Source: a virus. Taken from it: DNA of 23,367 bases. Both the position numbers and the translations under genes were made by a program. Below, one piece after another: positions 883 to 19,514 of the stretch. The stretch's first letter is position 1, and every line of letters begins with the position of its first letter. The notes beneath the pieces were generated by a model. It was given only the letters and a program-made list of their open reading frames with translations, did no database searches and had not been told where the DNA came from. The DNA lies in the UHGV virus genome UHGV-0063792; one strand, given 5' to 3'.

Positions 883-2394
883 ATGACTGACATTAAAGTA
901 CATTTTTATGATTTTAGTCACGTGAGAATTGATTGCGAAGAAAGTACATTTCATGAACTCCGTGATTTCTTTAGCTTTGAAGCTGATGGGTATCGTTTTA
1001 ATCCGAAGTACAAATATGGCCACTGGGATGGACGAATTCGTCTTTTAGATTATAATCGCCTTCTTCCATTCGGTTTAGTCGGGCAAATTAAAAAGTTCTG
1101 CGATAACTTTGGCTATAAAGCCTGGATTGACCCACAGATTAACGAAAAAGAAGAATTATCAAGAAAAGATTTTGATGAATGGCTTTCTAAATTAGAAATC
1201 TATTCAGGAAATAAAAGAATTGAACCGCATTGGTATCAAAAAGATGCAGTGTTCGAAGGATTAGTTAATCGTCGTAGAATTCTTAATCTTCCAACATCCG
1301 CTGGTAAATCGTTAATTCAAGCTTTGCTTGCGCGATATTATTTGGAAAATTATGAAGGTAAAATTCTTATCATTGTTCCAACAACTGCTCTAACAACTCA
1401 GATGGCTGATGACTTCGTTGACTATCGTTTATTCAGTCATGCAATGATAAAGAAAATTGGTGGCGGAGCATCAAAAGATGATAAATATAAAAATGATGCA
1501 CCAGTCGTTGTTGGTACATGGCAAACTGTAGTAAAACAACCGAAAGAATGGTTCTCACAGTTTGGAATGATGATGAATGATGAATGCCATCTTGCTACAG
1601 GAAAAAGTATTTCATCTATCATATCAGGTTTAAATAACTGCATGTTCAAATTTGGTCTATCTGGTTCATTACGTGATGGCAAAGCCAATATCATGCAGTA
1701 TGTTGGAATGTTTGGTGAAATATTTAAGCCAGTAACGACTTCTAAGTTAATGGAAGATGGACAAGTAACTGAGCTAAAAATTAATAGTATTTTTCTTCGC
1801 TATCCCGATGAGTTCACTACTAAATTAAAGGGAAAAACTTATCAAGAAGAAATAAAAATTATTACGGGGCTTAGTAAAAGAAATAAATGGATCGCTAAAT
1901 TGGCTATTAAGCTTGCACAAAAAGATGAAAACGCTTTTGTCATGTTTAAACATGTATCACATGGTAAAGCTATTTTCGATTTAATTAAAAATGAATACGA
2001 TAAAGTTTATTACGTATCAGGGGAAGTTGATACCGAAACCCGCAATATAATGAAAACCTTAGCTGAAAATGGTAAAGGAATAATTATAGTAGCTAGTTAT
2101 GGTGTATTTTCTACTGGTATTTCAGTTAAAAATCTGCATCACGTTGTTTTAGCGCACGGTGTTAAATCAAAAATCATTGTATTACAAACAATCGGTCGTG
2201 TATTACGTAAGCATGGTTCTAAAACAATCGCAACAGTCTGGGACCTCATAGATGACTGTGGTGTCAAGCCAAAATCTGCTAATACTAAAAAGAAATATGT
2301 TCACTTGAACTATCTTTTAAAACACGGCATTGATCGTATTCAGCGCTACGCAGATGAAAAATTTAATTACGTAATGAAAACAGTTAATTTATAA
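883..2394 (+). CDS. uvsW: UvsW SF2 DNA/RNA helicase (recombination/repair, R-loop unwinding), 503 aa
   Basis: 503-aa ORF; Walker A-like LPTSAGKS, DECH box (MMMNDECHLA), helicase C-terminal motifs; N-terminus MTDIKVHFYDFSHVRIDCE as in T4 UvsW. Confidence 0.9.
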   Translation: MTDIKVHFYDFSHVRIDCEESTFHELRDFFSFEADGYRFNPKYKYGHWDGRIRLLDYNRLLPFGLVGQIKKFCDNFGYKAWIDPQINEKEELSRKDFDEWLSKLEIYSGNKRIEPHWYQKDAVFEGLVNRRRILNLPTSAGKSLIQALLARYYLENYEGKILIIVPTTALTTQMADDFVDYRLFSHAMIKKIGGGASKDDKYKNDAPVVVGTWQTVVKQPKEWFSQFGMMMNDECHLATGKSISSIISGLNNCMFKFGLSGSLRDGKANIMQYVGMFGEIFKPVTTSKLMEDGQVTELKINSIFLRYPDEFTTKLKGKTYQEEIKIITGLSKRNKWIAKLAIKLAQKDENAFVMFKHVSHGKAIFDLIKNEYDKVYYVSGEVDTETRNIMKTLAENGKGIIIVASYGVFSTGISVKNLHHVVLAHGVKSKIIVLQTIGRVLRKHGSKTIATVWDLIDDCGVKPKSANTKKKYVHLNYLLKHGIDRIQRYADEKFNYVMKTVNL

Positions 2395-17759: not shown

Positions 17760-18092
17760 TTATTTTACTACTTTCCAATGCTGCATGTCAAGTTTACCAA
17801 CTTTTTTCATCTTCTCAATTAAGCGTTCGGCACGTTGGCGAGCTGTAACATAATACCATTCACCTAATTCATTTTGTTCAATTTTTCCAACGATTACTGT
17901 ATTCAATTCATAAATCCAACCAGTAAAGAAATTATGAACTTGAATTGTAAAGGTGAAATCTGTTCCCATACCTTCTGTTGTTTCTACTTCAATAATATCA
18001 CCTTCAACTGCCATTAAGAACCACATAGTTTCATCATATTTACCATTGAAGCATTTAGTTTTAACTGCAGCGTTCAGATTAATCGTTTTCAT
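17760..18092 (-). CDS. Hypothetical protein, 110 aa
   Basis: ORF with ATG start preceded by AAAGGAGAATAAA. Confidence 0.6.
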   Translation of the reverse strand: MKTINLNAAVKTKCFNGKYDETMWFLMAVEGDIIEVETTEGMGTDFTFTIQVHNFFTGWIYELNTVIVGKIEQNELGEWYYVTARQRAERLIEKMKKVGKLDMQHWKVVK

Positions 18093-18154: not shown

Positions 18155-18170
18155 AACTTTATGCAATCTT

Positions 18171-18202
18171 TGGAAAATAAAAAAGGACTCCCGAAGGAGT
18201 CC
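18171..18202 (-). terminator. Strong rho-independent terminator (UUCG tetraloop)
   Basis: Minus strand GGACUCC-UUCG-GGAGUCC, perfect 7-bp stem, followed by UUUUUUAUUUUCC; 5 nt after the stop of the small basic protein gene. Confidence 0.65.
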
Positions 18203-18207
18203 TCAAC

Positions 18208-18384
18208 TTATGCTTTCTGCTTACCAAAACGAGAAGCATCATCTCGAAGAACCGCACGTGCTCGGCGCATGATCTTCTCAACAGTTTGATTGATACGAGA
18301 GTTCGACCCACGCTTGTAGCCAGCGCGTTTAGAATCACCAACTTTCTTTTCAACTGCTTTCTTTGCTTTAGCTTGTTTTGCCAT
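18208..18384 (-). CDS. Small Lys/Arg-rich basic protein, 58 aa (possible alternative start at 18426 giving 72 aa)
   Basis: MAKQAKAKKAVEKKVGDSKRAGYKRGSNSRINQTVEKIMRRARAVLRDDASRFGKQKA; weak AAGAG SD; followed by the strong terminator. Confidence 0.5.
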   Translation of the reverse strand: MAKQAKAKKAVEKKVGDSKRAGYKRGSNSRINQTVEKIMRRARAVLRDDASRFGKQKA

Positions 18385-18426
18385 TATAAATTCTCTTTTA
18401 AATGAAAATGCAGGACTTATTGGCAT

Positions 18427-18782
18427 TGCCTGCGCAAGCCCTCAAGGGGAACATAGGTTTTTTGATATTTAACGACCAGGATAACCATAAACCCGTCATC
18501 ATACCTTATAGCTCTTATCTGTTGCACACCGTTAGCTTAAAGGTTCCGGGTTCGATTTCTCGAGGATAAGATATATACTGATGGATATATAGGCCTTGAG
18601 GCGTACTCCCGATTGGCCATCACCTCGGGGTAGCATGCACTTGCCGCTATAAGAATAACATTCAAGAGGTACACCGTAAAACTGCCGGGGTCTTAAAACT
18701 ATAATGATTCGCAAATCATTAATCAGACAGTTCGACGGCTCCTCGTTTTAACTTCACACTAAGGCAGTGAATCTCCAATAAA
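18427..18782. other. 355-bp non-coding, locally GC-rich region with multiple hairpins between rIII and the small basic protein gene
   Basis: No ORF with an ATG start and RBS on either strand; inverted repeats at 18560-18600, 18608-18629, 18702-18721 and 18752-18770. Confidence 0.4.
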
Positions 18783-19031
18783 TTACTTCAGTGTTACCAC
18801 AAAGTGACGAACTGCTTTTCGTGCAGCAGAAGCCAGAGGCTTAGCATATTTAAGTTCATCTTTTTCCTGAAGCTCAGCAGCTAATGCAGTTTGAGCAGGA
18901 TTCAGATGTTTGAAATAACGCAGGATTTCAAGAGCTTCGGCTTCAACATCAATAGATGCGCCATAGTTTTCGTGACCATTATTCCATGCGTTTCGTTGCA
19001 GTTCAAGAGCGTGTTGTAATTGTTTAATCAT
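18783..19031 (-). CDS. rIII: RIII lysis-inhibition accessory protein, 82 aa
   Basis: 82-aa ORF MIKQLQHALELQRNAWNNGHENYGASIDVEAEALEILRYFKHL, matching T4 RIII in sequence and length. Confidence 0.85.
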   Translation of the reverse strand: MIKQLQHALELQRNAWNNGHENYGASIDVEAEALEILRYFKHLNPAQTALAAELQEKDELKYAKPLASAARKAVRHFVVTLK

Positions 19032-19178: not shown

Positions 19179-19514
19179 TCACTTATAAAGACACGGAATA
19201 GCTTTATAGTGACAGGTAACGAATTTTTGTTTAATTTCTTTTGGCTGCTTAAAACCCAGAGCTACAAAAGGGTGTGGAACGTTTCGAATTTGACCAACTG
19301 GAAGAGAAGTCAAATCACCAACTTCACAGAAACCTTCAGGAACATCAGGACCGACAGAGTGAACTACACACAGTTCAGGAACTTCACCTTGAACACGTTT
19401 ACCGATAATAAGTCCTGATTCTGTAACTTCTTCATCACCGGCTTGTGCAGGTTCAGAAACTAAAATAACATATTCACCGACAGCACGAATTGGTAGCTGT
19501 TGTACTTCAGACAT
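19179..19514 (-). CDS. 31: gp31 co-chaperonin (GroES analogue for capsid protein folding), 111 aa
   Basis: 111-aa [33 protein letters not shown] with AAGGA SD; matches T4 gp31. Confidence 0.9.

Follow-up and report, generated by a model that had tools for sequence, protein, structure and literature searches.

What occupies the spacer between the genes rIII and 30.9 of a T4-like phage if no protein is encoded there? The question was raised by virus genome UHGV-0063792, from which a stretch of 23,367 nucleotides (nt), referred to here as the window, was analysed. A first-pass annotation had described a GC-rich, structured non-coding interval at 18427–18782 and had left its nature open among an uncharacterised structured RNA, a regulatory or origin-like element, and the decayed remnant of a gene or mobile insertion. 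The sequence features that it listed are all present where it placed them, and the GC enrichment of the interval was borne out (0.435 versus 0.352 for the window). From the comparisons described below, the minus strand of 18507–18651 is almost certainly a self-contained, compactly folded non-coding RNA of ~145 nt, referred to here as the core (GC content 0.469). Thus, the first of the three options is strongly supported: the structure covaries, its strand is defined, and no Rfam family accounts for it. The window phage is a Tequatrovirus; over 451 bases around the interval it matches Escherichia phage vB_EcoM_G4498, among several other phages, at 100% identity.

Fold, strand and identity of the core RNA

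The core is modeled with seven helices and 44 base pairs on the basis of a comparative alignment and a covariance model (R1). In the numbering used for the RNA, position i equals 18652 minus the window coordinate. The closing stem P1 (RNA 2–6/140–144), whose sequence is freely variable, meets P2 (RNA 7–9/58–60), the plain hairpin P4 (RNA 61–67/74–80) and P5 (RNA 81–87/133–139) in a four-way junction that contains no linker nucleotides. P2 is joined to P3 (RNA 18–30/35–51) through a large invariant internal loop (AAGUGCAU / CUCAAG). P5 leads into a three-way junction composed of P6 (RNA 89–92/97–100), capped by a GAAA loop of the GNRA type, P7 (RNA 101–105/121–126), which presents the invariant 15-nt loop GAACCUUUAAGCUAA, and the invariant strand GCAACA. 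Conservation is extreme throughout the loops and junctions, and the longest run without variation is GCUAAcGGUGuGCAACAGAU. A scan of all column pairs for pseudoknots or tertiary pairs gave nothing convincing; UGCA/UGCA and AAGG/CCUU tertiary pairings were considered and rejected as both are disrupted in variants.

The evidence for this fold is comparative. A MAFFT alignment of ten genera, analysed with RNAalifold and not fitted to any model, produced the 44 pairs, 16 of them with compensatory changes, and model R1 was built from this alignment. The core scores 176 bits against R1, and a search with the model recovered complete copies from IMG/VR and from contigs of metagenomes; two of these copies are divergent (100–106 bits). 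In a larger set of 25 distinct sequences, standard pairs make up 98.5% of the pair cells, and 23 of the 44 pairs have undergone compensatory change; this larger alignment was fitted to R1, and the unfitted alignment gave the same pairs. A companion count of the core returned 99.1% paired with 21 compensatory pairs. None of 500 shuffles matched the pairing values of the core, and sliding the partners by 1–3 columns lowered the pairing to 25–42%. Each of the seven helices contains at least one compensatory pair. The core therefore has a conserved structure in which base pairs are kept by compensatory substitutions beyond the level of the controls. Folding of the single sequence is unremarkable (z = −1.28 for the sense strand and −0.12 for the antisense strand), while the centroid of that fold agrees with the consensus structure. 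The beyond-chance evidence for the fold is thus comparative and not thermodynamic.

The same comparison identifies the strand. Among the core pairs read on the minus strand, there are 52 G·U cells and a single A·C cell, showing the minus (gene-sense) strand to be the functional one. The P6 loop is GAAA or GUAA only when read on this strand. The strand read in the first-pass annotation was the other one, and the origin-like DNA element that it entertained is disfavored, given that G·U prevails over A·C by 52:1. Two of the stems noticed on that strand correspond to helices of the core, both with compensatory changes: the TATATA/TATATA inner stem matches P4, and CCCGA/TCGGG forms the upper portion of P3. 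The outer CTCGAGG/CCTTGAG stem did not hold up, being 76% paired with no compensatory changes and in competition with the well-supported P6. The YCGGGKT motif, reported as a repeat, is within chance expectation, as its 5 copies in the window compare with an expectation of 3.0±1.7, and at least as many were present in 20 of 100 shuffles.

No protein-coding frame was found that could account for the interval. The spacer contains open reading frames (ORFs) of 60 amino acids (aa) from a TTG start, 36 aa from a GTG start and 34 aa from an ATG start, plus a 55-aa ORF with an ATG start on the opposite strand, none of which belongs to a Pfam or PHROG family. In every one of the 23 distinct core variants, all six frames are interrupted by one or more stop codons, and the variants differ by insertions and deletions of 1, 2 and 9 nt. 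While the 34-aa ORF begins in a conserved AUGAUG, the same frame closes after 3 to 10 codons in other genera. A protein-coding gene was rejected since no frame is kept open in relatives and non-triplet insertions and deletions occur; no protein-coding homologue spans the interval, and its original description as non-coding stands. Hypothetical proteins have nevertheless been annotated over this RNA in public records. In NC_054918.1, gp208 and gp209 correspond to window positions 18532–18714 and 18417–18527, respectively, and are best regarded as artefacts of ORF calling since the core variants contain no conserved open frame. As a practical point, spurious proteins are annotated over the element in several GenBank records.

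The core was also compared with known RNA families. A scan of both strands against Rfam 15 (4227 covariance models, E ≤ 10), a check that had been proposed with the initial description, returned no match inside 18385–18782, and the core copy of a Klebsiella phage produced only a chance snoRNA match of 14 bits. By blastn, the core has no match in 5,426 E. coli genomes. Plasmids gave only two chance matches of 30 nt, and the most conserved 19-base block of the core has an exact match in none of 185,579 species representatives of GTDB. Additional pattern scans for divergent members found only chance matches in coding sequences (loci L020, L093 and L095). No description of the core RNA was found in the literature searched, the coverage of which was incomplete, or in the part of the supplements to a gut-microbiome RNA-motif catalogue that was searched. 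From sequence comparison, the core would therefore represent an RNA family for which neither an Rfam entry nor a literature description was found, although its kind, a phage-encoded structured non-coding RNA, is already known.

Two resemblances to cellular RNAs were considered and set aside. The core shares with tRNA a cloverleaf-like topology, in which a closing stem and three arms meet at a four-way junction; however, its arms are much larger and there is no CCA end. The 'T-loop-like' string GGGTTCGATTTC that had been noted lies on the non-functional strand and is merely the complement of the GAAA-capped hairpin P6, as is the GGTTCGATT-like string. Since ARAGORN detected no tRNA or tmRNA gene in the whole window, both were rejected. 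The core also shares the 10-mer GUGCAACAGA, which we take to be J11/12 in M1, and CGAUGGCC with the specificity domain of E. coli M1, the RNA of RNase P. The order of the segments in M1 differs from that in the core, and the RNase P models of Rfam were unmatched. With a Smith-Waterman score of 20 versus 16.7±2.1 for shuffles (p ~0.09), this likeness was rejected as coincidence.

Distribution and exchange of the core

Relative to T4, the window contains an additional 153 nt at 18503–18655, and T4 lacks exactly this segment. The segment is present in 408 phage records with one copy per genome. Of these records, 161 are Klebsiella phages and 131 are Escherichia phages; the remaining carriers are phages of Shigella, Enterobacter, Yersinia, Salmonella, Citrobacter, Serratia, Raoultella and Erwinia. 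At every locus examined, the core was located in the rIII-30.9 spacer and oriented in the sense of the genes. It is 77–99% identical to the window copy where gene 31 is 61–81% and rIII is 65–84% identical at the nucleotide level, from which we infer a very strong sequence constraint that includes the loops and junctions. Since it is more conserved than the nearby gene for an essential co-chaperonin, the core very probably does something important for its ~400 sequenced carriers. T4-like phages are the best-studied large lytic phages, and the core was probably overlooked because T4, T2, T6 and RB69 are all without it. Many of the carriers are Klebsiella, Enterobacter and E. coli phages that are considered for therapy.

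The presence of the core is patchy. It was found in 20 of 40 gp31-anchored loci, and both presence and absence are seen within single genera. The insertion slot, bounded by 18655/18656 and 18503/18502, holds either the 145-nt core, an unrelated element of ~45 nt, or nothing, as in T4. The ~45-nt alternative (UACUAUCAUGCGUCAGAAAAGUGUUAUCUGUGUAAGUCUUGGUGG) occupies the slot in T2, T6, RB69 and sister genomes of JS98-type phages; the regions compared for the slot were those of T2 (L087, 11348–11635), T6 (L088), RB69 (L086, 12344–12606), L054 and L061. Relatives of this element are found elsewhere in the spacer in L050 and L078 and, in more diverged form, in L068 and L081. The core itself starts from ~10 nt (CF1 and Cronus) to ~130 nt after the rIII stop codon and ends ~65 to ~240 nt before the 30.9 start codon, with different intervening modules. 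Gain or loss occurs precisely at P1. Considered together, the exact gain or loss at P1, the variable distance and order, and the patchiness that recurs within genera suggest that the core is autonomous and dispensable; it is an exchangeable cassette within the 31-rIII-30.9 transcription block. Nature provides isogenic-like pairs of phages that differ in whether they carry the module, so that its function is directly testable.

The cassette-like presence or absence at one slot, along with the small ORFs annotated over the core in some GenBank records, might be expected if the core were what is left, without function, of a decayed gene or mobile insertion, or if it acted at the level of DNA, as an origin or recombination site would. 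Such a reading can hardly be correct. The core is more conserved than the adjacent essential genes, its seven helices are kept by compensatory changes, only one of the strands tolerates G·U wobble, and there is neither an open frame in any variant nor a protein family for the ORFs. A decayed remnant in particular is contradicted by a spacer that is more conserved than the genes that flank it. The remnant and DNA-element readings are thus largely refuted already.

A candidate ToxI-like unit and the possible function of the core

The rIII-30.9 spacer (18385–18782) contains no sigma-70-type promoter on either strand, as judged by −35 and −10 hexamers with 16–18 nt spacing, and a scan identified no terminator-like sites inside it; T4 middle and late promoter types were checked by eye only. 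Since the only strong terminator follows 30.9, the core would most simply be made as part of the gene 31-rIII-30.9 transcript, and it could be cut out of that transcript.

This arrangement would suit a cis-acting element of the rIII-30.9 mRNA, either a processing or stability module or a protein-bound operator that tunes the neighboring genes. The core is inside a transcription unit, in sense and between two genes, with no promoter or terminator of its own, and RNA structure extends over the entire spacer, the conservation of which exceeds that of the genes. Such an operator might be recognised by a phage or host protein, for example RegA, ribosomal protein S1 together with RIII, or the product of 30.9 itself, a small and very basic protein that is plausible as an RNA binder. 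S1 is a binding partner of RIII, which also modulates the cleavage of early mRNAs by RegB in this gene block (PMC9409239), a link that makes a cis element attractive. In many genera, the stretch before 30.9 can also pair with the Shine-Dalgarno region (UCUCC...GGAAGA). However, neither the distance to the two neighbors nor the order of the intervening modules is conserved, and phages that cleanly lack the core keep rIII, 30.9 and all other spacer modules. Moreover, 145 near-invariant nucleotides and a four-way junction exceed the needs of a stability hairpin. A cis-acting role is unlikely on balance. As the position of the core relative to its neighbors is not fixed and its loss leaves them undisturbed, action in trans is the likelier alternative to fixed cis-regulation: the core would act as a folded RNA on a partner.

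A hint to its role may come from the rIII end of the spacer. Directly after the rIII stop codon, at 18746–18777 on the minus strand, is a single, diverged unit (UGGAGAUUCACUGCCUUAGUGUGAAGUUAAAA) that is predicted from similarity to belong to a ToxI-like RNA family. ToxI is the RNA antitoxin of ToxIN, a type III toxin-antitoxin and abortive-infection system. The unit aligns with the 36-nt ToxI repeat; units from Klebsiella phages match at 30 of 34 positions, and the window and T4 copies are diverged, with ~20 of 34. The published repeat used for this comparison is AGGTGATTTGCTACCTTTAAGTGCAGCTAGAAATTC (PMC8610362), partly confirmed by a primer (PMC5772629). The 3-bp internal stem covaries among the ToxI-like units (UGC/GCA, CGC/GCG, CAC/GUG and AGC/GCU), and the TTCAC/GTGAA hairpin of the first-pass annotation is this internal stem. 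A second covariance model, R2, matched the window at 18741–18785 with 49.4 bits, a match that is partly circular as the window copy was among the 12 sequences from which R2 was built. R2 identified one match per locus in 24 of 44 sources, always in the rIII-30.9 spacer and on the sense strand, though many of these matches were in its training set; outside this spacer there was no further match in 302 kb. Units were mapped in L003 (~1641–1676, minus strand), L055 (3214–3259), L074 (3158–3204) and T4 (L002, 2245–2288, minus strand). The unit is diverged in T4, T2 and T6, and RB69 is without it. In Klebsiella-type phages and in L052, L060 and L074, the unit directly abuts P1 of the core.

The likeness of these phage units to ToxI is found in the aligned 36-nt repeat, the covarying internal stem, an A-rich 3′ end and a phage-encoded location on the transcribed strand. 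In contrast to a ToxI array beside toxN, the phage unit is present as a single copy, and toxN is not nearby since the neighbors are rIII and 30.9. A precedent for a phage non-coding RNA that mimics an antitoxin is the 'pseudo-ToxI' of Pectobacterium phage ΦTE (PMC3475682). Within the literature searched, the coverage of which was incomplete, no mention of ToxI-like units in T4-like phages was found. The occurrence of ToxI-like units in the spacer, diverged even in T4, suggests by analogy that counter-defence by means of RNA may be widespread among these phages.

With these observations in mind, the reading that is tentatively favored, at rather less than even confidence, is that the core is a folded cassette RNA that acts autonomously and in trans with a role in phage-host conflict. 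It may serve as an accessory RNA, either as a decoy or as an antitoxin-like inhibitor of a host factor. The conflict role is a guess made by analogy with the ToxI-like unit in the same spacer and with the antitoxin mimic of ΦTE; taken by itself, a trans-acting counter-defence function would be doubtful. Several points weigh against the favored reading. T4, the best-studied relative, is without the core. The association with the ToxI-like unit is weak since each occurs independently of the other: CF1, Cronus, COW86c and Ent31 have the core and not the unit, and T4, T2, T6 and L061 have the unit and not the core. The core has no resemblance to ToxI in sequence or structure, being non-repetitive and four times the length of a type III antitoxin unit. 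It is also not an obvious mimic of a host RNA since no similarity to E. coli, plasmid or GTDB bacterial sequences was found. The high identity across genera could in part reflect recent exchange among co-infecting T4-like phages. Finally, the compact fold, invariant junction nucleotides and GNRA loop would fit a riboswitch aptamer or a ribozyme equally well.

As a riboswitch aptamer, the core would bind a small molecule, such as a nucleotide-pool or signaling metabolite, and control read-through into 30.9 or its translation. The c-di-GMP-I/GEMM-I class provides an example of riboswitch aptamers that combine a GNRA tetraloop with a multi-helix junction. The core shares with aptamers of this type a length of 100–150 nt, a freely covarying P1, an invariant junction, a GNRA-capped helix and a gene downstream; its unpaired nucleotides are invariant and it is followed by hairpins with U-rich tails or by hairpins that may sequester the Shine-Dalgarno sequence. 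In contrast to GEMM-I-type aptamers, the core has no conserved expression platform at P1, where module H, module T (both described below), other hairpins, the 45-nt element or nothing may follow, and no known ligand. The fixed position expected in a 5′ untranslated region is not observed, given a distance of ~65 to ~240 nt to the 30.9 start codon and, in L081, a module T that is upstream of the core. None of the riboswitch families in Rfam was matched, and T4 expresses 30.9 without the core. A riboswitch is an improbable identity for the core.

It was also considered whether the core is a new catalytic RNA, self-cleaving or otherwise, by which the polycistronic transcript is processed between rIII and 30.9. 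Hairpin and twister-sister ribozymes are built around a perfect four-way junction with conserved loops in the arms, and small ribozymes are common in phage intergenic regions with a patchy distribution. The core shares the four helices joined without linkers, the conserved internal loops in the arms and the patchy intergenic occurrence, and the extreme conservation of its loop and junction sequences would also be in line with a ribozyme. However, the likeness is architectural only: no ribozyme family of Rfam was matched, even at E ≤ 10, and no cleavage-site signature was identifiable. Catalysis by the core would thus be quite unlikely.

In terms of novelty, it is possible, although with low confidence, that the core represents, as its first example, a new class of phage RNAs that act through their three-dimensional fold, for example as an RNA-only inhibitor or decoy of a host protein involved in defence or RNA metabolism, or else a new ribozyme or riboswitch class. 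If the core is an inhibitor or decoy, the rIII-30.9 spacer of T-even-type phages would become an 'RNA anti-defence island' composed of exchangeable cassettes, namely the ToxI-like unit, the core, the 45-nt alternative and modules H and T.

Neighboring genes and the remaining spacer modules

The genes of the locus are all encoded on the minus strand in the order gene 31, rIII, 30.9 and 30.8, so that rIII is the upstream and 30.9 the downstream neighbor of the spacer in the direction of transcription. Gene 31 (19179–19514) encodes the essential co-chaperonin gp31. The rIII gene (18783–19031) encodes an 82-aa lysis-inhibition accessory protein, assigned from a match to phrog_1457 (4.7e-44) and from the annotation of rIII in identical phage records and in T4. 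The 30.9 gene (18208–18384) encodes a basic protein of 58 aa that matches phrog_1427 (2.3e-31) and has the length and start of T4 30.9. The 30.8 gene is located at 17760–18092. An intrinsic terminator 3′ of 30.9 (18183–18204), composed of a 9-bp GC-rich stem and a U-run and annotated as a terminator in NC_054918, is likely the end of the transcript that carries the spacer. A weak match to Atu_C8, a Rhizobiales small RNA of Rfam, at 18169–18252 on the minus strand (31 bits, gathering score 50) is explained by this terminator hairpin, and membership in the family was rejected.

The left edge of the interval required correction. It had been placed at 18427 by taking an ORF of 72 codons with an ATG at 18426; the conserved start of 30.9, as annotated in T4, is the ATG at 18384. 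The true spacer between rIII and 30.9 therefore spans 18385–18782 and is 398 nt in length compared to 244 nt in T4. In some public records, the small basic protein encoded by 30.9 carries the name '1,4-alpha-glucan branching enzyme', which is likely an annotation artefact. In L051, L052 and L070–L071, the 30.9 protein is 88–97% identical to the window copy where rIII is only 67–76% identical, which points to mosaic exchange of a small region between genera.

The spacer as a whole is a mosaic of small structured RNA modules, the order of which changes between genera. Between the ToxI-like unit and the core, Module 2 (18663–18745, minus strand) is predicted to fold into a long irregular helix made of CGAGG/CCUCUUG, GCCGU/ACGGU and AACUGUC/GGCAGUU. 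It carries the hairpin UAAUGAUU-UGCG-AAUCAUUA (18702–18721), followed by UAGUUUU. For Module 2, identity reaches 100% with RB69 and 98.8% with JS98, compared to 84–86% for rIII. Compensatory changes are found in L062 (GCCAU/AUGGU) and in L054 (AAUUGUC/GACAAUU, as well as in the inner hairpin), such that the TAATGATT/AATCATTA hairpin noticed at the outset stays paired through the changes in L054. The hairpin at 18702–18721 with its UAGUUUU was not scored as terminator-like in the scan, its stem being A/U-rich. Module 2 looks like a second functional RNA that may perhaps include a weak rIII terminator.

On the 30.9 side of the core, Module H (18456–18504, minus strand) is a hairpin with a conserved loop, UUUAUGGUUAUC in the window and UUGUAGGUUAUC in most genera, followed by CGUUAAAUAUCAAAAAACC. 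It is found in nearly all genera, either upstream or downstream of the core, and is kept in T4, T2, T6 and RB69. Two ideas concerning Module H were rejected. Its four single matches in metagenome-assembled genomes of Bacteroidota were taken as chance and not as a bacterial antitoxin repeat, and a pairing of its loop with P5 of the core showed no consistent covariation by eye. Module T (18433–18455, minus strand) comprises UAUGUUCCCCUUGAGGGCUUGCG, a small CCC/GGG hairpin, and is conserved across genera; it precedes the core in L081 and follows it elsewhere.

The last features before 30.9 are a terminal hairpin, GCAGGCAAUGCCAAUAAGUCCUGC, followed by AUUUUCAUUU (18410–18433, minus strand), and the ribosome-binding region of 30.9 (18385–18409, minus strand). 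In other genera, a different hairpin, GGGAGC...GCUCCC, is found at the position of the terminal hairpin. In phages of Klebsiella, Citrobacter, Enterobacter and Serratia, a hairpin domain of ~60 nt (GGGAGCUACAACYGAAAGAACUGUCGAAAGAAGUUGAAMCUCRGAAGAACGUGCUCCC) that includes two C-GAAA-G motifs is conserved between Module T and the 30.9 start codon, where the window has a simple hairpin. The domain was located in L003, L004, L009, L010, L066–L071, L076, L079, L080 and L083.

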